Source: a virus (Duplodnaviria > Heunggongvirae > Uroviricota > Caudoviricetes). Taken from it: a stretch of 36,051 nucleotides of DNA. The position numbers were made by a program, and so were the translations under genes. This document shows, piece after piece, positions 1 through 36,051 of the stretch (its first letter is position 1; each line of letters begins with the position of its first letter). The stretch lies in IMG/VR virus record IMGVR_UViG_2579778871_000005; one strand, 5' to 3'. The notes under the pieces were generated by a model that was not told the DNA's origin, searched no databases, and worked only from the letters and a program-made list of their open reading frames with translations.

Positions 1-258
1 TCAGGCGTCCAGATTTTCTTTCACCCATGCAGCAAAATCGGTATAGCCGCCGATATGTTGCTGATCGACAAAAATCTGCGGCACGGTTTCTACGGGTTTA
101 CCTGCCTTTTGTTGTAGATCTTCTTTAGTGATCCCTTCCGCACGAATATCTACATACTGATACTGAAAATCATCGCGTTCATTGCTCAATTTCTCAGCCA
201 GATCTTTTGCACGCACACAGTAAGGGCAACCCGAACGACCAAAAATAACGGTTTGCAT
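1..258 (-). CDS. grxA: Glutaredoxin 1 (host gene flanking the prophage)
   Basis: ORF 1..273 minus; product from the internal Met reads MQTVIFGRSGCPYCVRAKDL... with the CPYC active-site motif and matches my recollection of E. coli GrxA; ATG (plus-strand CAT) at 256-258. Confidence 0.9.
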   Translation of the reverse strand: MQTVIFGRSGCPYCVRAKDLAEKLSNERDDFQYQYVDIRAEGITKEDLQQKAGKPVETVPQIFVDQQHIGGYTDFAAWVKENLDA

Positions 259-498
259 TATTTCTCTCCTCATAGATTTATGCCTGTAATGATCACGCTA
301 AAATGTATTCGCTGAAAGTAGGTTTAACCTGTTGCATTAATTGCTAAAAGCTATAACTGTTAAACACAATACAGTGAAAAGTTTTAGACTGAAGGCTCAC
401 TTTGCAGAGGGAAGCTAAAGCCGCGCGCGATAAATCGGCGCTAAAAACGCAATAAATAGCAGGCGGCTTTCATTTCAGTATGTGTAACAGATTTTCTC

Positions 499-1221
499 TT
501 ATTTAGGGTAAGCCTGAACTCGGAACAACTTACTGTTAAGATGCTGACGCGCACGTTTATCCAAAAAGCGGATATAGCGGAACTGTTTATAACGATGTCT
601 CGTTGCTTTATCCAGATTTGCTCGAAGGTACTCTCCGCGTTTGCCACCACGAACTAGCGCCGTTCTACATATCTCATGGTAAAACTCACCATCCAATTCA
701 TAAAACGTAGAGAAATGGCTACCGATGTAGTCAAAATTTGCAGCCTGATACACTACGCCTGAACGGCCACAACGCTCATCCGCAAATGTTTGAACCCATT
801 TAACTTGTGGATAAAGAATGGAGATGAGCTTCAGTGAGTAAGCTAAGACACGACTTTCAGTATTGCGGGGCTGGCTGTCGTGAATCCACATTCGATTGAG
901 TTCCATATACTCCCGGTTGCCGGTCCCGAGTACCACTCGTGCGCCGCTGTTGGGGTTTAATGCATAACCGAACTGTAATACTCCAACCAAATTTCTCCCC
1001 GCAAATACCCCGAGATGCAAGTAACTGTTGTTAACAAACCGCCTGGAATAATGCTTATCTTGAATAATAGACCTGGCCAGCCAGCAACTGATGGTTTCTA
1101 CACGCAGTTCTGTGCAACCATATCCCACGATATCATTCTGATCCTTGATTACGCCGCGAGGGCTTAATACACGAGAAACCTTTTGAGCCATAATAACCTC
1201 TCGTCTGGCGCTCAAAGGCAC
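499..1221 (-). CDS. mom: Mom-like DNA modification protein (start may be the internal Met at 1191)
   Basis: 240-aa ORF containing [13 protein letters not shown], which matches the Mom motif I recall from phage Mu (..IYKAANFRYLG..); sits immediately downstream of, and overlapping, a Com-like zinc-finger ORF as in the Mu com-mom operon. Confidence 0.7.
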
Positions 1222-1333
1222 TCAATTCGTTTACAAACCCGCAGCGCGGGCATTTTATTTGCACCTCAATAACCTGCCCCTTGAATAGCAGTTTTGAGCA
1301 TTGCGTACATCTGACATGCATTTTGTCTGTCAT
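1133..1333 (-). CDS. com: Com-like zinc-finger translational regulator of mom
   Basis: Sub-ORF of 1133..1501 starting at ATG 1333 ([36 protein letters not shown]...), a CxxC...CxxC zinc ribbon resembling Mu Com (..IRCKNCNKLLFKA..IRCPRCK..); its 3' end overlaps the mom start. Confidence 0.55.
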
Positions 1334-1378
1334 TCTGCAAACCTTTTTCAGTATGTGAAAAACTGATAGGCTTACCGG

Positions 1379-1394
1379 ACTGATGGCCATCAGT
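1379..1394. promoter_or_regulatory. Perfect 16-bp palindrome ACTGATGGCCATCAGT upstream of com (candidate regulator binding site)
   Basis: Read directly from the sequence in the 145-bp gap between the stop at 1479 and the com start at 1333; a second inverted repeat CCAGAGTC..GACTCTGG lies at 1439-1466. Confidence 0.3.
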
Positions 1395-1478
1395 GGCAGC
1401 CTTGGGCGGCTCGCAGGCGCATCCTGCGGGTTAGCTGGCCAGAGTCTGGTTGCAGCCTGACTCTGGTCGCTGTTTTCC

Positions 1479-1931
1479 CTATAACGTCTTATTTTGAACA
1501 CTACTGGCTAGCGCGTGGAGTATGTTAGGTGAGTAACGCCAGCTATCGACCAGTCCGAGGAAATCTGCACAAAACTCACTGCAGAAATACTTATCCTCTC
1601 GCCCACGATTGAAAACAACAAACCCCACAGCACCCAACCAGTCGTATTTCAATTGGTCATTTTGCTGGAAGAACTTCTCAACGCGGGCAGGTGATGCCCT
1701 TGTCAGTATCAAATCCCATTTATCGCGCGGCAGCGGCATTTGCTTGCAGCGCACCCCCTTGTCACGCACCGACGACGAATAACAAACAAACTCACCGTTA
1801 CCCAGGTCAACGGCCAGCTCGCAGTGAGAATACTCACCCCGCGTCACCAGTCGCGTCAGCCAGTCGGAAAGCCGTGCAAACCCATGATGATCTTCTCGCC
1901 CTTTATAGAACGCCAGATACACCTGCTTCAT
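1479..1931 (-). CDS. Permuted papain-like (YiiX/YaeF-type, NlpC/P60 superfamily) protein, putative
   Basis: ORF 1479..1940; likely ATG at 1931 overlapping the upstream stop (ATGA). His-containing motif YSHCELAV early and C-terminal Cys motif KYFCSEFC, the order expected for permuted papain-fold enzymes. Assignment by motif only. Confidence 0.45.
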   Translation of the reverse strand: MKQVYLAFYKGREDHHGFARLSDWLTRLVTRGEYSHCELAVDLGNGEFVCYSSSVRDKGVRCKQMPLPRDKWDLILTRASPARVEKFFQQNDQLKYDWLGAVGFVVFNRGREDKYFCSEFCADFLGLVDSWRYSPNILHALASSVQNKTL

Positions 1932-2554
1932 GGTTGCCACCCCGTGGAGTAGTCATACGCCTGAACTGCCTGGATATCTTCCAGCGCCTCAACGGCGGCA
2001 ATATGCCGCTGGGCATTGGCAAAGAGGCGCATATCGTGATCCATTGTAACGGACTCAAACTGCGCCGCGATTTCATTGGTCAGCTCAAGAAGTCCGAGGT
2101 TTTTGGTCTGCCACATTAAGCCTTTGGGGATTTGCTTTGCCTGTCCCATTTTAGTCAGTGACATCTGCTGGATACGGCTACTGGCATCGCTGTGGAAGTG
2201 GTAGTCACCAATCACAATATAATCGGCAGTGACTTCGTCTCGTTGTGCTTTTATCGCTTGTTTAACTTGCGATTTAGCGTTATTAAGCTCGAGGGCAAAT
2301 CTGGCTACGTCATATACCCATACCTTTCCGTCTAACCGGTAAAAATCCCCTGGGGGTAATGTGGTGGTAAACGTTCTGTCTTCAACATTAACCCAGACAT
2401 ATTCCCCTTGATTGAAATGTTCAAGCCATTGTTGCTCAGTTAATTCAATCAGACTTGTTCTCTCTGGATAACAGAATAACTCGGTATCCATCCAATCCAG
2501 AACACGTAAGGATGCAGGATCGTAGTAAGCATATTTTGACATTATCTTCACCAA
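1928..2554 (-). CDS. Tail fiber assembly protein (Tfa)
   Basis: 208-aa ORF immediately downstream of the tail fiber gene with overlapping start/stop; size, position and C-terminal ..YDYSTGW.. are typical of Tfa chaperones. Confidence 0.6.
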   Translation of the reverse strand: MVKIMSKYAYYDPASLRVLDWMDTELFCYPERTSLIELTEQQWLEHFNQGEYVWVNVEDRTFTTTLPPGDFYRLDGKVWVYDVARFALELNNAKSQVKQAIKAQRDEVTADYIVIGDYHFHSDASSRIQQMSLTKMGQAKQIPKGLMWQTKNLGLLELTNEIAAQFESVTMDHDMRLFANAQRHIAAVEALEDIQAVQAYDYSTGWQP

Positions 2555-4164
2555 TAAATTCTGACGATACCAGAAGAACCATTCGATCCATTATTAAGAA
2601 CCCAGTCACCTAGATACCCCCGGTTACTGGCACTGGAGCTACCACCTGCACCACCTGCACCGAAGCCATTTGCATTAGATGGTAATGAACCAGCTATTAT
2701 CTCTGAACGTTCTAATGTGACATTCCCAGGGATTCCACCTTTACCTAAGATAGAATCACTCCCTCTTAGCCCTAGAGTTACATACTCTTCCTTACGCCCG
2801 CCTCCATTCCCATCAGAGGGGAGAAATCTTATTACATTTCCTCCTGTACACCCTGCTACACCTCCATCACCACCTGGTACATTCAGATATGCAAAAGAGG
2901 ATTGTCCTCCAGCGTTCCCGTTATAACCTATACCTTGTGAGCCGCTGCCTTTCGCACCTCCGCTACCGCCTACACCAACCATTACAGGTATCTGACTTTT
3001 TGGTGCAACATCAACATAACCAGCAATACATCCGGCAGCGATTCCCCCTGTGGAACAAACATTATTTGCTGATGAACCTCCGGCTCCGCCACCACCACCA
3101 CCAACAACCTCAACAAAGATCTGCGTCACCCCATCCGGTACAGTAAAAGTCCCATTAGCCGTAAAAAACTGATAATGGGAGTGGTTGGCTGGAGCTGCCG
3201 CACTTGCCTTGTCATACGCCGCCTTAACTGCGCTCGGCGTCGCCGCTTCCGTCGTGCTGTTACTATTCGTAGAGCTATTAAGCTTCACAACTCCTTTCTG
3301 TGCCGTCGTGGCATCCGGAACGTCGGTAATTTGATTCCAGGGGTGCGAATGATTTCCCGCCGCCTTACCATTCGCCAGGTCATACGCCGCCTTAACAGCA
3401 CTCGGTGTCGCTGCCTCTGTCGTATTGGTACTGTTCGTCGCACTATTAAGCTTCACAACCCCTTTCTGCGCCGTAGTGCCATCCGGCACCCCGGTAATAT
3501 CGCCCCACGGATGTTTATGCGCTTTATCAGCCCCAGCTTTTTCCAGTGCCTCATTCGCCTTATCCATCGCCGCCTTCACCGCCTTCGGCGTTGCTGCCTG
3601 CGTTTCCAGCGTGCTATTGGTTGAGCTGTTAAGCTGCGTAAAGCCTTTCTGCGTCAGCGTCGCGTCCGGGTGATTATGCGATCTTTCGTGCTCTTCAATA
3701 CTGGAGTCCACATAATCTACCGTTGCCATCACCAGTGATGGATCAACCATCAATGTCACAGCCGCCGCGTTCGTCACCTCCATCACCGCACGGATCACAA
3801 TCTGCTTACTGGCCCCGGCAGGCAGCTTCGGCTTATAGGTTTCCGGGAACTTGCCAATGGCGATCAGTACGCCGTCCTTATCCAGCAATCCCACCTCGCG
3901 GATATACCAGCCGCCGACTGATTCCGGCAGTACCGCCTCGGCAATCACCCACGCCGGGTTTTCCGGGGCGATTTTCAGAGTATTCAGTGGCCCGCGCCAG
4001 ACTTCACGCACCACCTTTGTCTGGCTCTCTTTCGGTTCGGCATACTGCCCACCGCCGTCGCCAACGACCATTGTTTGCAGCACTATCTGCTTTTGTTCCG
4101 CCAACGCCGCCGCGATTTTCGCGCGGCCAGCGGCGGTTAAAATGGTAAAAAATTCACTCGCCAT
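2548..4164 (-). CDS. Tail fiber protein
   Basis: 538-aa ORF; N-terminus MASEFFTILTAAGRAKIAAA... resembles the conserved N-terminal domain of Mu S / P2 H-type fibers; three in-frame tandem repeats (..AQKGVVKLNSSTNS..TTEAATPSAVKAAYD..HSHPW..ITDVPD..) and a Gly-rich C-terminal domain. Confidence 0.8.
   Translation of the reverse strand: MASEFFTILTAAGRAKIAAALAEQKQIVLQTMVVGDGGGQYAEPKESQTKVVREVWRGPLNTLKIAPENPAWVIAEAVLPESVGGWYIREVGLLDKDGVLIAIGKFPETYKPKLPAGASKQIVIRAVMEVTNAAAVTLMVDPSLVMATVDYVDSSIEEHERSHNHPDATLTQKGFTQLNSSTNSTLETQAATPKAVKAAMDKANEALEKAGADKAHKHPWGDITGVPDGTTAQKGVVKLNSATNSTNTTEAATPSAVKAAYDLANGKAAGNHSHPWNQITDVPDATTAQKGVVKLNSSTNSNSTTEAATPSAVKAAYDKASAAAPANHSHYQFFTANGTFTVPDGVTQIFVEVVGGGGGGAGGSSANNVCSTGGIAAGCIAGYVDVAPKSQIPVMVGVGGSGGAKGSGSQGIGYNGNAGGQSSFAYLNVPGGDGGVAGCTGGNVIRFLPSDGNGGGRKEEYVTLGLRGSDSILGKGGIPGNVTLERSEIIAGSLPSNANGFGAGGAGGSSSASNRGYLGDWVLNNGSNGSSGIVRIYW
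3169..3663. repeat. Three tandem ~140-bp in-frame repeats inside the tail fiber gene
   Basis: Near-identical DNA blocks (for example gccgccttaac.gc.ctcgg.gtcgc.gc.tc.gtcgt...ctattaagcttcacaac.cctttctg.gccgt) recur at about 3230-3330 and 3375-3480, mirrored by the protein repeats. Confidence 0.7.
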
Positions 4165-24839: not shown

Positions 24840-25130
24840 CTACAGCCCCATCGCCACGGACAGACACACCGCCGCGACAATCACGGCCCGGCGTAGCATC
24901 GCGGCGGAAAAGAGACGTTGTTCATCTTCCGCTGACTGAAAATAATTGGGCCGCGCATAGGGAAACAGGCTGCGATCCAGCCAGTAACCCAGCACCGCCG
25001 CCAGTGAAATCAGGCTTAGTTTGTAGATGACAACCGGGAGTTGCTGCGGGGAAATCAGGGCAATCAGTGCGAACAGCACCACCGATGCCACCAGCCAGCC
25101 GGATAAACGCGGGAAAAGAGAATTTTTCAT
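24840..25130 (-). CDS. Holin candidate (small protein with three hydrophobic segments)
   Basis: ORF 24840..25142; ATG at 25130 preceded by GGAGG; 96 aa; directly upstream of and abutting the endolysin gene. Confidence 0.5.
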   Translation of the reverse strand: MKNSLFPRLSGWLVASVVLFALIALISPQQLPVVIYKLSLISLAAVLGYWLDRSLFPYARPNYFQSAEDEQRLFSAAMLRRAVIVAAVCLSVAMGL

Positions 25131-25195
25131 AAGTGCCTCCATTGGGTGATGAAGGCAGTGTGGGGGATGGCTGGCAGGAAGGCTTTTAAAGGGGT

Positions 25196-26404
25196 TTAAG
25201 GAGTGGGCTTATTGCTCAAGTGATGCCACCATGACATCACTTTTGTAACCAAGGTATTCCATGTTTCAGGGTATGTGCAGTATAGGTAAATTAATCCTGT
25301 CGATATAATAGCGACAACAAGGAACATAATGATAAACCAGAACGCAATAACCTGACGGCAAAGACGTTTACGTACAGAGCAAAAGATACTATCAATGTCA
25401 TTTTTTATTGATGCATACTTTTTATCAACCTGAGTCTTTTTATGTCGAAGTTCTTCTTTGATAGCGGTTAACGTCTGTAACTGGTTGAACAAAGTCAACA
25501 TAACCAACGTAGCAAAAACAAAGGCCCCTAAAAAAACTGCGCTATTGATAATGGTTTGATAGACATCACCACTTGCTTTCTTGATTTGTGTCGCGACGAT
25601 AATGGTTGCGACTGGGATACCCAGTATCTGGTTTTGGATATCTGAAAAGACTTTGTGGATACGTCCCATTTCTTCAACTTTGGCGGTTCTAAGTTCATCC
25701 AGAACCTTTTCGTATGAGAACCCAGAAGTGAAGAGGCGATAACCCTTATCGAACTCAACTTTTAATTTTTCAATGTTCTTCAGTGCATACTCAAAGACTT
25801 TATTGTTTTCCGTTTCCTGACCGATTAACTGGATGCTTTCAATTAAAAGGGAGAGTTTCTGCTCTTTGTGTGTGTCGTCAGAAAACTGCTGAATGAGTTC
25901 ATCGAGTGTCGTTTTATCAAGATTTTCTACGGTTTCTGCACTGTAACGTATAGGTAATTTAAATACATCGGCACGGAAAAAAACGCATTCATATGCTCTG
26001 GTATCAAAGTATGCCGACTTTTCTTTAAGCAGGCGCAGAAATGTTAAGATAGTGCGGTAGTTTTCAATTACGGATGTTGGCGCATCCGAACTATAAAATT
26101 GGCTGTCGATCAGGTAGTATCGGGAAGGTTCCTCGCTTTGGTGTTTTGGCGACTTTAACAAAGCCGCCAAATTACGGCATAGCAGACCTAGCTTTGTCTT
26201 TGGGGCGTTCACAAATAGCGACACCTGCTGACCAGGTTCTACTTCGCCTTGTGCCAGAGAGATCCCATATGTATCAGTGTCCTCAAGCAAGGTGTTGAGC
26301 AACTCGCAGGATTCTGGGGTAAGCACCAGCGTACCTTCGGCCATATCGTTACCGAAAGTAATCTGCCTGTACAATCCCACCAGCTGCTCAAAACTGATAC
26401 TCAC
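25196..26404 (-). CDS. Cargo protein of unknown function with ~330-aa soluble N-terminal region and two C-terminal TM helices
   Basis: 402-aa ORF; its start overlaps the stop of the NdpA-like gene (ATGA at 26401-26404); C-terminal hydrophobic helices (..TIINSAVFLGAFVFATLVMLTLF.. and ..VIAFWFIIMFLVVAIISTGLIYLY..); AT-richer than the phage backbone by eye. Confidence 0.75.
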   Translation of the reverse strand: MSISFEQLVGLYRQITFGNDMAEGTLVLTPESCELLNTLLEDTDTYGISLAQGEVEPGQQVSLFVNAPKTKLGLLCRNLAALLKSPKHQSEEPSRYYLIDSQFYSSDAPTSVIENYRTILTFLRLLKEKSAYFDTRAYECVFFRADVFKLPIRYSAETVENLDKTTLDELIQQFSDDTHKEQKLSLLIESIQLIGQETENNKVFEYALKNIEKLKVEFDKGYRLFTSGFSYEKVLDELRTAKVEEMGRIHKVFSDIQNQILGIPVATIIVATQIKKASGDVYQTIINSAVFLGAFVFATLVMLTLFNQLQTLTAIKEELRHKKTQVDKKYASIKNDIDSIFCSVRKRLCRQVIAFWFIIMFLVVAIISTGLIYLYCTYPETWNTLVTKVMSWWHHLSNKPTP

Positions 26405-27432
26405 TCCTCAACCTCATCCAGTATCTCTTCCCTGAAGCTATCAGGAATATTCCTTAGAATGATTACATCCTGATCACGATTATACTCAATTGAACCATCT
26501 ACAAGACCGACACGATCAAACTTTAGTTCCCAATAATTAGACTTTCCTTTAAAGGAAATGATTCCTTTTAGTACGCGTCCATCAGGGACAAAACCATCCG
26601 ACAGTTCCAGTTCTTGGTTGGCTAGTTTAGTCGAGAGTAGTTCTGGTTCTTGTGGCCAGACCGCATTCACAAAGGTTGTCAGATCTACAGGCTCACCATC
26701 TTTGCTCAGTTGCTTCAAATGGTCATGTGCAGTTTGCAGAAAAGCCTCTCGATGTGCGGGGTCAAGCCCTTGCTCAGTCGCAAATTCTTTCAACGCATCC
26801 CGCAATTTCTCCGTTTCACGCTTGGCGATCAAAACATCGTTACAGCCCAGGAATTGCTTAAAGTAACCAGATACAGCATTACTCCCCTTCAGGAAACTTA
26901 TATAACGTTCGGCACCTGATTGCCAGGACGTAATGTCAATACGCCCCGCCACACGTAGCTTGTCGATATCAAGGTAGACACTTTCTTGGATAGCAAAGGC
27001 ATCGTTAACCGCAGTACCCGTCGTGGGACTTAACATGGCAACTAAAATATGCTCGTGTTGATTCATCGTAATGTGGGCGAATAGAACATAGCCACCAGTA
27101 GCGAGTGGTGTTGTTTGAATTCGAGATTCCAAATGACGAATCATACGGCAGGAGCTACGGTAAAAATTATCAGGATGCTCCTGAGCTAAATAGTCTGATA
27201 CAATTGTTTGCATCGGGTAATTATCTGGGTCATCTTCAAAATGGCCATAGCCTTTCCCCATTCGCCCTGCATATTTCCCACAGATATCATCGATTAAGCG
27301 TTGTGATGCTGCGGTGACACCGCTCTCTGTTGGACTTAGCTGTAAGGATGTCACCCCATGCGGTTCTTTATCTAAAAGATGAACAACCACATGATTTACA
27401 ACGATTGCATTTGCAGGTTCATTTGCTGGCAT
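26401..27432 (-). CDS. NdpA/YejK-like nucleoid-associated protein homolog (diverged)
   Basis: ORF 26401..27483 (first codon GTG); likely ATG at 27432. Segment GGYVLFAHITMNQHEHILVAMLSP...RIDITSWQSGAERYISFLKGSNAVSGYFKQFLG aligns with E. coli YejK as I recall it ([24 protein letters not shown]...[37 protein letters not shown]). Confidence 0.65.
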   Translation of the reverse strand: MPANEPANAIVVNHVVVHLLDKEPHGVTSLQLSPTESGVTAASQRLIDDICGKYAGRMGKGYGHFEDDPDNYPMQTIVSDYLAQEHPDNFYRSSCRMIRHLESRIQTTPLATGGYVLFAHITMNQHEHILVAMLSPTTGTAVNDAFAIQESVYLDIDKLRVAGRIDITSWQSGAERYISFLKGSNAVSGYFKQFLGCNDVLIAKRETEKLRDALKEFATEQGLDPAHREAFLQTAHDHLKQLSKDGEPVDLTTFVNAVWPQEPELLSTKLANQELELSDGFVPDGRVLKGIISFKGKSNYWELKFDRVGLVDGSIEYNRDQDVIILRNIPDSFREEILDEVEE

Positions 27433-27509
27433 AGAATCTGAAACCTTCAGTAGAGTTAGATAGTAAATGCATGCTGTCTGCACGCTTTTTGGTTTTGTTT
27501 ACAACATGT

Positions 27510-28031
27510 TTAATCTTGCCTTGGACACATCCAGTAATCCTCATCCGGCTCTGGCGAGTAAACCATCAGGCACCCTTCGCGCGGCGGCTTCTTATCAGAA
27601 GTCATAGGAACTTTTTCTTTATCCAGTTTCACAACCAGATCCCCACCCGGTACATCCGCTTTATCGAAGCAGACAGACTGGCAGGCAGATTTTGAAATCT
27701 TTACTTCGTGGGTATTATTGGAGATGAAAAGGAAGCAGGTATGACCGGAGGCAGTGTAATTACCTGGTATGTCGTTTTTATCTTTTACGTGAAACTCGAC
27801 CGTCGTAACGGGACGTTGGCTATCATCGTAGACCTTGAACGAATCGAAGTTTGTCGCGTACTTATCCAGACCTGGGCACTGTTGACGAATAAACGGCAGT
27901 TCACGTTTTACTACCGGATTATCGGACTCAACCTTAAATGTAGTAGGGACAGGAGATGGTGCGGCATTATCATCACCACACCCAACCATTAGCAGAGCAC
28001 TTACCCCCAGAGGTAAAAGAAAGTGCTTCAT
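27510..28031 (-). CDS. Cys-rich lipoprotein of unknown function (possible exclusion protein)
   Basis: 173-aa ORF with signal peptide and lipobox (MKHFLLPLGVSALLMVGC); AAGGA ribosome-binding site before the ATG at 28031; same strand as and downstream of the repressor. Confidence 0.7.
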   Translation of the reverse strand: MKHFLLPLGVSALLMVGCGDDNAAPSPVPTTFKVESDNPVVKRELPFIRQQCPGLDKYATNFDSFKVYDDSQRPVTTVEFHVKDKNDIPGNYTASGHTCFLFISNNTHEVKISKSACQSVCFDKADVPGGDLVVKLDKEKVPMTSDKKPPREGCLMVYSPEPDEDYWMCPRQD

Positions 28032-28143
28032 AAAACATCCTTATCTAAAGAAACTCCGTCAACTCTGACAGCAGGTCTCTGGTGACAGAGATAACCAACA
28101 GACCTTTTGAGGCTTTAACCAGGTGCGTAATACCACTACGTTA

Positions 28144-28494
28144 CTATCCGGCTTGTTTATCGGGTCGGGCCTGCGTGAGCAATCGGCCCATTTCAAGAAT
28201 CGCCCTCCGTTGTTCGGCGCTCATATCGTCAAAGGCCTCTAACAACCTTTGTTTTTCTGGTGAAAAATTTTCTACCTTTTCTGCAACCATTGATGGATTA
28301 CGTTGCCCAGTAACTACATAGAGAACATCTAATCCAACCTTTGCCCAAGCCTCTAAAACCGCACTATTAGGGAACGAAGCGCCTTTTTCCCAATTGATTT
28401 GGGAGTGCTTACCTGCGCTAGCCAAAGCAGCGAAATCAGTCTGGTTGTAACCCAACCGTTCACGTTCCTTTTTAATGCGTTCACCTTGGTTCAT
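28144..28494 (-). CDS. Prophage repressor, XRE-family helix-turn-helix protein
   Basis: 116-aa ORF with N-terminal HTH-like segment (..IKKERERLGYNQTDFAALASAGKHSQINWEKG..); divergent from the early operon across a repeat-containing intergenic region; no peptidase domain. Confidence 0.7.
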   Translation of the reverse strand: MNQGERIKKERERLGYNQTDFAALASAGKHSQINWEKGASFPNSAVLEAWAKVGLDVLYVVTGQRNPSMVAEKVENFSPEKQRLLEAFDDMSAEQRRAILEMGRLLTQARPDKQAG

Positions 28495-28589
28495 TTTTTT
28501 CTACTTTTACATTGAAAGGTTGAAAATTTTCTACCATAATCTACCACACATAAACCAAACATCATTGCATCAAACAAGGAGCCAGAACC
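28495..28589. promoter_or_regulatory. Divergent repressor/early promoter-operator region
   Basis: Candidate rightward sigma70 promoter: -35 TTGAAA (28512-28517), 17-bp spacer, -10 CATAAT (28535-28540); repeated TTTTCTAC(C) at 28497-28504 and 28527-28535 and TCTACCA at 28540-28546; AAGGA before the ATG at 28590. Confidence 0.45.
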
Positions 28590-35614: not shown

Positions 35615-35649
35615 TGAAACGAGGTCGTAATGATGTTGGCCTCGTTTCA
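35615..35649. repeat. Inverted repeat (10-bp arms TGAAACGAGG / CCTCGTTTCA, 15-bp spacer) at the prophage right end
   Basis: Read directly from the sequence; starts 5 nt after the mor stop; the right arm ends in CA at 35649 and overlaps the 9-bp word TTTCAGTAT also present at 473-481. Confidence 0.5.
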
Positions 35650-35763
35650 GTATCTGAAAAGCAATTACAGAAACCGTCCCGTTAAAACTCACCTCACCCC
35701 ATCTAATCCCATAATTATCGTGCAGATGATGGTGGGTTTATCTCACTTCTGATTAGGAAGCGT

Positions 35764-36051
35764 ATGCGCGCGATCGGTAAATTGCCTAAAGGCGTGTTGA
35801 TACTGGAATTTATCGGAATGATGCTACTGGCGGTGGCGCTGCTGTCGGTAAGCGACTCCCTGTCGCTGCCTGAGCCATTTTCTCGGCCAGAAGTGCAGAT
35901 TCTGATGATTTTTCTCGGTGTTTTGCTCATGCTTCCCGCTGCGGTGGTGGTTATTCTTCAGGTGGCAAAACGTCTTGCCCCACAGCTGATGAACCGTCCA
36001 CCGCAATATTCACGTTCAGAAAGAGAAAAAGATAATGACGCCAACCATTGA
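35764..36051 (+). CDS. ybjC: Small inner-membrane protein, host gene flanking the prophage (ybjC-like)
   Basis: 95-aa ORF with two hydrophobic helices, divergent from grxA as in the E. coli K-12 grxA/ybjC arrangement as I recall it; AGGAAG before the ATG. Confidence 0.65.
   Translation: MRAIGKLPKGVLILEFIGMMLLAVALLSVSDSLSLPEPFSRPEVQILMIFLGVLLMLPAAVVVILQVAKRLAPQLMNRPPQYSRSEREKDNDANH

Follow-up and report, generated by a model that had tools for sequence, protein, structure and literature searches.

A prophage-borne gene pair encoding a YejK-like nucleoid-associated protein and a membrane protein is probably a diverged member of a described kind of anti-phage system

We analyzed a stretch of 36,051 nucleotides (the window: the whole of IMG/VR virus record IMGVR_UViG_2579778871_000005, from a virus of the Caudoviricetes) and focused on two adjacent genes, referred to here as gene A and gene B, that encode a YejK/NdpA-like nucleoid-associated protein (NAP) and a protein with C-terminal transmembrane (TM) helices. 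An earlier note, made from the DNA letters, had singled out this pair as possible defence cargo. Based on homology to the anti-phage system DS-1 and on an architecture shared with type II PANGU systems, we consider it likely that the pair is a prophage-borne two-gene anti-phage system of the kind that combines a YejK-like NAP with a membrane effector.

The gene pair lies between the repressor and the holin gene of a Mu-like prophage

The two genes are on the same strand as the prophage repressor gene and form a tight pair. Both open reading frames (ORFs) described in the earlier note are present (gene A, 26401..27483 when read from a GTG; gene B, 25196..26404), they overlap by four nucleotides, and profile matches to the flanking genes placed them between the repressor and the lysis cassette, as the note had said (Table 1). 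The overlap had been given as ATGA. Its length and position were correct, but the letters, read from the sequence (...GAG GAG TGA), are GTGA. The note had also judged by eye that the region is richer in AT than the phage backbone, and calculation bore this out: the GC content is 0.415 for gene B, 0.445 for gene A, and 0.436 for the island at 25143-28589, versus 0.563 for the flank at 3000-25142. The low-GC block also takes in the neighboring lipoprotein and repressor genes (0.467 each).

The phage backbone is that of a Bcepmuvirus-like transposable (Mu-like) phage, with a DDE transposase, a Mor activator, and Mu-type portal and F proteins, and its relatives include PhiKM, KP12, and phiE255. 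The window corresponds to IMG/VR contig UViG_2728369607_000010 and is 99.97-100% identical to a prophage beside ybjC in Escherichia coli A35 and OkiPb01694. Compared to the A35 prophage (locus L001), positions 5106-36051 had one mismatch and eight indels across 30,954 bp.

Table 1. Features of the gene pair and its neighbors in the window.
Feature	Coordinates	Strand	Size or residues	Basis and remarks
Gene A, YejK/NdpA-like NAP; proposed sensor, PagA/DS-1A-like	26401..27432	-	343 aa	Profile matches; RefSeq start
Gene B, soluble N-terminal region and C-terminal TM helices; proposed effector, PagB/DS-1B-like	25196..26404	-	402 aa	phrog_5023; DS1_2_antiphage
Start/stop overlap GTGA	26401..26404	-	4 nt	Gene B GTG start, gene A TGA stop; read from the sequence
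Purine-rich, Shine-Dalgarno-like stretch GAGGTTGAGGA	26405..26415	-		Within the end of gene A, upstream of the gene B GTG; putative role
Gene B soluble N-terminal part	25640..26404	-	aa 1-255	Alpha/beta domain, then helices; AlphaFold2 (AF2) model, pLDDT 82
Gene B most conserved block, GYRLF.SGFSY.K..D.L..AK.EE.G.IHK.FSDIQNQILGIPVATIIVATQ.K	25580..25747	-	aa 220-275	Invariant columns in the 38-sequence alignment A1
Gene B TM helix 1	25478..25558	-	aa 283-309	Kyte-Doolittle 19-residue window maximum 2.30; AF2 helix
Gene B TM helix 2	25268..25369	-	aa 346-379	Kyte-Doolittle maximum 2.63; AF2 helix
Lipoprotein gene, lipobox LMVGC; separate cargo	27510..28031	-	173 aa	Between repressor and gene A
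Prophage repressor gene; not part of the two-gene system	28144..28494	-		HTH_19 and Phage_CI_repr matches; PHROG transcriptional repressor/regulator families
Holin gene	24840-25142	-		PF13272, 4e-33; an SLT endolysin gene follows

Gene A encodes a full-length member of the NA37/YejK family

Gene A is a complete family member that is distinct from the housekeeping YejK. Its product matched the Pfam family NA37 (PF04245) over profile positions 1-324 of 325 (6e-73, 246.5 bits; cut-off 24.6), phrog_3767 (1e-99), and, end-to-end over residues 11-337, the YejK structure PDB 9be2 (1.5e-29). The proposal that the first gene is a diverged NdpA/YejK homolog thus held up in the profile searches. Against the NCBIfam YejK equivalog model (NF001557) the score was 187.3 bits, under the cut-off of 341, indicating that gene A is a paralogous, mobile member of NA37. 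Gene A and housekeeping YejK/NdpA belong to the same fold family, but gene A is encoded by a prophage and is always paired with gene B. DNA binding and association with the nucleoid are predicted from its family membership.

Translation of gene A appears to start at the ATG at 27432, giving a protein of 343 amino acids, rather than at the in-frame upstream GTG at 27483 (360 amino acids) from which the earlier note had read it. We favor the ATG because it is the RefSeq start at the identical locus in A35 and because homologs align from about residue 10-21 of the 343-aa version.

Gene B encodes a protein with a soluble N-terminal region and C-terminal TM helices

The description of gene B as a 402-aa protein with a soluble N-terminal region and two C-terminal TM helices agreed with both hydropathy and the AF2 model (Table 1). 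The protein matched phrog_5023 (5e-87), and no Pfam or PADLOC family was matched. The profile of the gene B family collected 1225 clusters at 50% identity, almost all of them 380-420 aa in length. Comparison of this profile to PDB sequences found no relative, and a Foldseek search of the PDB with the AF2 model gave nothing significant (top match, the AhlB pre-pore, E 0.69).

The soluble part (aa 1-255) is mildly acidic, with a pI of 4.94 and a net charge of -11. By analogy with the effector of type II PANGU systems (below), it is a candidate NAP-binding domain. The most conserved block consists of a juxtamembrane stretch and a short hydrophobic helix at about aa 259-275. Residues of gene B that do not vary include H250, K251, D255, Q257, N258, P264, N287, N307, and Q308. 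The loop between the two TM helices (aa 309-350) has a net charge of +6.

The two genes are tightly joined and may be transcribed from the repressor promoter

The overlap of the two genes is predicted to couple their translation. The GTG start of gene B is backed by the homolog in E. coli M-17, which aligned from residue 1 (MSISFE / MAISFE), and in related loci a GTG start stands in the same register. For 37 of the 39 homologous loci, the junction between genes A and B fell in the range from -14 to +3 nt.

We found no convincing minus-strand promoter or strong terminator between the repressor gene and gene A. Because no promoter belonging to the cassette was found, we assume that repressor transcription is the likely source of lysogenic read-through into the pair. 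On the other side, the stop codon of gene B is 53 bp from the start of the holin gene, which is on the same strand, and no terminator was detected between them (25143-25195 and 25196-25260 scanned; folding of the 3' end, z = -1.2). Comparison of the intergenic region in different loci by alignment was uninformative. In the M-17-type prophage, a convergent dam gene occupies the position between gene B and the holin gene.

Both proteins are remote homologs of the proteins of DS-1

DS-1 (DefensePredictor system D390; DS-1A, WP_000355468.1; DS-1B, WP_000150292.1) is a validated anti-phage system (DefensePredictor, Science 2026), and the YejK nucleoid-associated domain is one of those for which the same study reports a newly validated role in defence. 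In the screening table of the DefensePredictor supplement, the -log efficiency of plating for DS-1 was 7.6 with phage Bas1, 2.7 with Bas26, 1.7 with Bas3, 1.7 with T3, and 1.0 with T5. Two NCBIfam models are derived from DS-1: DS1_1_antiphage (NF053868, "nucleoid-associated anti-phage protein") and DS1_2_antiphage (NF053869).

Gene A matched DS1_1 (4e-18, 65.5 bits; equivalog cut-off 330) and gene B matched DS1_2 (1e-20, 74.2 bits; equivalog cut-off 315). With BLASTP, gene A was 23% identical to DS-1A (2e-10) and gene B was 25% identical to DS-1B (1e-9). The relationship held across the sampled gene B family: DS1_2 was matched by 38 of the 38 sampled members, and hhalign of the family alignment (A1) with DS-1B gave a probability of 96.2% (E 2.4e-9, 278 columns). 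By these comparisons, both window proteins are remote homologs of DS-1A and DS-1B. Scores below the equivalog cut-offs indicate that the window pair is a separate subfamily and not DS-1 proper.

The two loci are also similar in layout. In each, a NAP gene is followed, across a tight junction, by a gene for a partner of about 400 aa (343 and 402 aa in the window, 391 and 404 aa in DS-1, whose NAP gene is at 220602-221777 and partner gene at 221780-222994 in the DefensePredictor supplement). Both NAPs have the NA37 domain, both systems are found in E. coli, and gene B is homologous to DS-1B over about 280 residues, with hydrophobic segments at corresponding C-terminal positions. They differ in that the window NAP has no counterpart of the N-terminal CxxC...CxxC extension of DS-1A, and in that the hydrophobic segments of DS-1B are weaker than those of gene B. 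In addition, phage protection was demonstrated for cloned DS-1, whereas for the window pair it is predicted.

The pair is accessory cargo in a variable slot

The interval between the repressor and holin genes holds different genes in related phages and prophages: a Dam methylase and small ORFs in PhiKM; a homolog of the window lipoprotein, together with a Dam methylase and one further ORF, in KP12; a membrane protein and small ORFs in phiE255; and further, different gene sets in E. coli AR_451 and DSM 101139. These phages dispose of the concern that the pair might be a conserved part of all related phages. In E. coli M-17, the slot has a NAP/TM pair that is 64%/47% identical to that in the window, plus a Dam methylase. 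Among complete E. coli genomes, a related lysis cassette was present in 822 of 5426. The cassette query matched DNA in 251 E. coli genomes, 59 of them at an identity typical of the pair (2 identical and 57 at 60-80%; among the matches listed, pair matches were at about 68% identity). The 822 genomes with the lysis cassette, compared to 59 with pair-like matches, indicate that the pair is accessory cargo and not a conserved phage function. A megablast search of phage records with the cassette gave nothing; relatives were found at the protein level only.

The cassette has moved between elements. In Bcepmu-like prophages, it is in the same slot between repressor and holin. In one lambdoid phage (L019, 4185-8748), it is between the genes for the antiterminator Q and the holin, a slot that holds stx in Stx phages. 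In a second (L030, 3425-7158), it is flanked by the nin region on one side and the lysis genes on the other, beside the holin and Rz genes and in the opposite orientation. These two placements indicate that the cassette lands repeatedly beside lysis genes in unrelated backbones, and it abuts the lysis cassette in a Klebsiella locus (L007) as well. Further relatives are in an integrase island with methyltransferases and, in Pseudomonas, directly downstream from a type III restriction-modification (RM) system with a Schlafen/AlbA_2 protein.

The repeated position next to lysis genes in these backbones, and the short, apparently terminator-free distance from gene B to a holin gene on the same strand, would also fit a role of the pair in the lytic cycle of the phage itself, in which a sensor of the state of the nucleoid and a membrane protein tune the timing of lysis, or aid the holin, after the host chromosome has been fragmented by replicative transposition and headful packaging. 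We consider this very unlikely. Most related phages lyse without the pair, as indicated by the E. coli genome counts and by PhiKM, KP12, and phiE255; the pair in L030 is transcribed opposite to the lysis genes; and the pair also occurs outside of prophages, beside RM systems. Furthermore, slots adjacent to lysis genes are general sites for extra phage cargo, stx being an example, and this argues against reading a lytic function from position.

We noted DNA adenine methylase genes (D12 class or Dam family) near the pair in several prophages with different backbones (L002, 8865-9635; L007, 5924-6694; L019, 2052-2855; L030, 10071-10757). Because relatives that lack the pair (PhiKM, KP12, AR_451) carry such genes too, these may be associated with the phages and not with the pair. 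Two IMG/VR loci (L014 and L015) have a pair 98% identical to that of the window and a lipoprotein 83% identical, and no homolog of the window repressor was detectable in them, which suggests swapping of the immunity region around a conserved cargo block.

Gene B was always found with gene A

The NAP gene and the membrane protein gene are consistently linked. In the co-occurrence survey that the earlier note had called for, gene A was directly upstream of gene B in all seven phage records, in all four sampled genomic contigs (Xenorhabdus, Klebsiella, Methylotenera, and Pseudomonas), and in 39 of 39 evaluable IMG/VR loci (a fortieth was cut at the gene and was left out). The divergence of gene A and that of gene B from the window pair co-varied (r = 0.84, n = 36, with no correction for phylogeny).

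This linkage bears on an explanation without any immune role, in which gene A is a mobile nucleoid protein that adjusts transcription of the host or the prophage and gene B is unrelated or accessory. Gene A is a complete YejK-like protein; NAP genes often stand alone in phages (F116, H66, and Vibrio phages, for example); and Pnd, the NdpA homolog of plasmid pCAR1, is a precedent. On the other hand, gene B was never seen without gene A upstream, the two appear to be translationally coupled, their divergence co-varies, and each is homologous to one protein of a validated defence system. We consider this explanation highly improbable.

Alongside an intact TM gene, a Mu-like prophage of Xenorhabdus budapestensis (L006, 6211-8017) has a NAP gene split into two called genes of 247 and 97 aa, which may reflect either decay of this copy or a frameshift introduced by sequencing.

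The lipoprotein gene is not a third component

The gene between the repressor gene and gene A encodes a lipoprotein that the earlier note had treated as a possible companion of the pair. It travels with the repressor instead. A homolog (66.5% identity) is beside the repressor gene in KP12 and Phi06_2974 B, both of which lack the pair, and the M-17 prophage has the pair without the lipoprotein gene; on these grounds we rejected the lipoprotein as a third component of the system and treat its gene as independent cargo. It may be a superinfection-exclusion protein. In another locus (L017, 3921-4871), a 316-aa version precedes the pair, and compared to it the window lipoprotein looks internally shortened.

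The pair has the architecture of type II PANGU systems

PANGU systems are two-gene defence systems based on a NAP. Those of type II, such as PANGU-Ecu, combine a YejK-like NAP (Pag2A) with a TM effector (Pag2B). Both genes are needed, neither is toxic alone, and the phenotype is that of abortive infection. Pag2B has an acidic, DNA-mimicking ("DMK") domain at its N-terminus, to which Pag2A binds with a KD of 19 nM, and Pag2A-GFP departs from the nucleoid upon infection with T4 (all from bioRxiv 10.64898/2026.04.06.716658). PANGU operons are defined by less than 40 bp between the genes. The window pair has the type II layout, a YejK-like NAP gene in a two-gene operon with a partner that has a C-terminal TM domain, and it resides in E. 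coli, which is also a host of type II PANGU, a type that is widely distributed and horizontally mobile. The preprint makes no mention of prophages, whereas the subfamily in the window is mostly in prophage cargo slots. Type I systems (Pag1A and the GRel toxSAS protein Pag1B) use the same sensor family and an effector with an acidic NAP-binding domain, but Pag1B is a soluble alarmone synthetase instead of a membrane protein and carries the NAP-binding domain at its C-terminus.

The properties of PANGU also speak against a toxin-antitoxin or addiction module that stabilizes the prophage, with the membrane protein as toxin and the NAP as antidote: a coupled two-gene cassette with a membrane protein does resemble some toxin-antitoxin layouts, but the PANGU genes are singly non-toxic and both required (bioRxiv 10.64898/2026.04.06.716658), both window proteins are large, and searches of Pfam, NCBIfam, and PADLOC matched no toxin-antitoxin family, making this reading scarcely credible.

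Based on these comparisons, the pair appears to be a diverged member of an already described and validated kind of defence system, a distant DS-1 homolog with the architecture of type II PANGU. The defence activity of the pair is a prediction from that homology and that architecture. The suggestion that the pair joins a nucleic-acid-binding sensor to a membrane effector as defence cargo gained support from the DS1_1 and DS1_2 matches, the hhalign result with DS-1B, and the abortive-infection phenotype of the PANGU operon. Also in favor of a defence role are the gene order and protein sizes shared with DS-1, the linkage and tight junction of the two genes, the RM, Schlafen/AlbA_2, and methyltransferase neighbors of relatives, the variable cargo slot, and the low GC content of the island. 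The earlier note had not recognized the pair as a named defence family; the names DS-1 and PANGU type II now exist, and the kind is not novel.

Several points weigh against our interpretation of the pair as a defence system of this kind. Both proteins are far under the DS-1 equivalog cut-offs at 23-25% identity, so function is extrapolated over a long distance. The resemblance to type II PANGU was compared at the level of architecture (two cistrons, the first for a YejK-like NAP and the second for a protein whose soluble, acidic N-terminal domain precedes a C-terminal TM part), and the preprint leaves the mode of action of Pag2B unexplained (bioRxiv 10.64898/2026.04.06.716658). PADLOC (PADLOC-DB v2 of 2023, with SLATT and other models, and older than DS-1 and PANGU) gave no usable match for either protein. 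A pI of 4.9 for the soluble part of gene B is compatible with a DMK-like domain but is ordinary for a cytoplasmic protein. If the N-terminus is cytoplasmic and there are two TM helices, the +6 loop would be periplasmic, contrary to the positive-inside rule; this conflict would disappear if the conserved helix at aa 259-275 were inserted into the membrane as well. Lastly, a promoter scan found sites no more often than in shuffled sequence, and no convincing promoter for the cassette.

A possible mechanism

The working of PANGU suggests a sequence of events for the window pair, which we put forward tentatively and with somewhat less than even confidence. The lysogen would make both proteins, probably by transcription from the repressor promoter and with translation coupled through GTGA. 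The gene A protein would be on the host nucleoid, apart from the gene B protein, whose C-terminal helices would anchor it in the inner membrane. An infecting phage that degrades or displaces host DNA would set the NAP free. The free NAP would then bind the acidic, cytoplasmic N-terminal domain of the gene B protein, and binding would switch on the membrane part, probably with loss of membrane integrity or potential, such that the infection aborts. We infer expression in the lysogen, the trigger, the binding of NAP to effector, and the action of the effector all by analogy.

A sensor of this type in a transposable phage raises a further question. Mu-like replication and headful packaging break the host chromosome, so the NAP sensor should also fire when the prophage itself is induced. 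It is conceivable, although we think unlikely, that the pair doubles as a lysis or exclusion switch gated by the state of the chromosome, or that the phage has a means of silencing it. In either case, the control of phage lysis would be connected to the sensing of genome integrity, a connection that would be new.

The near-invariant juxtamembrane motif of the effector is a target for mutagenesis that could help explain how type II effectors act. Beyond what the available text of the DS-1 and PANGU papers describes, our analysis indicates a large subfamily of effectors of conserved length that is mainly prophage cargo and always accompanied by a NAP gene. In Bcepmu-like prophages of E. coli, Klebsiella, and Salmonella, its place is the slot between the repressor and holin genes, and in lambdoid phages it is the region between Q and the holin gene. 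If the subfamily is active, these common prophages would contribute to host immunity by sensing the integrity of the nucleoid. A reading of the raw sequence alone had picked out a probable defence cassette of a kind that was validated only in 2025-2026.

Other features of the window

RefSeq flags several genes of the A35 prophage as frameshifted or interrupted (those for the tape measure protein, gpD, and the ExeA/B-like protein). We considered whether these pseudogenes mark a prophage in decay with its cargo retained and set this aside, as the eight indels between A35 and the window may be assembly errors; the gene disruptions in A35 may likewise be assembly indels rather than true decay. The ORF for the terminase large subunit is 438 aa in the window, compared to the 426-aa coding sequence annotated by RefSeq in A35.

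Positions 1-3000 of the window are also low in GC (0.44-0.50, versus 0.55-0.60 for the backbone) and, judged by position, may be a tail-fibre or host-range region. At the right end (about 35620-36051), the window passes from the Mor activator gene into host ybjC, by correspondence with L001 30667-30954, indicating that the IMG/VR contig holds a little host DNA and that the prophage is inserted upstream of ybjC-nfsA.

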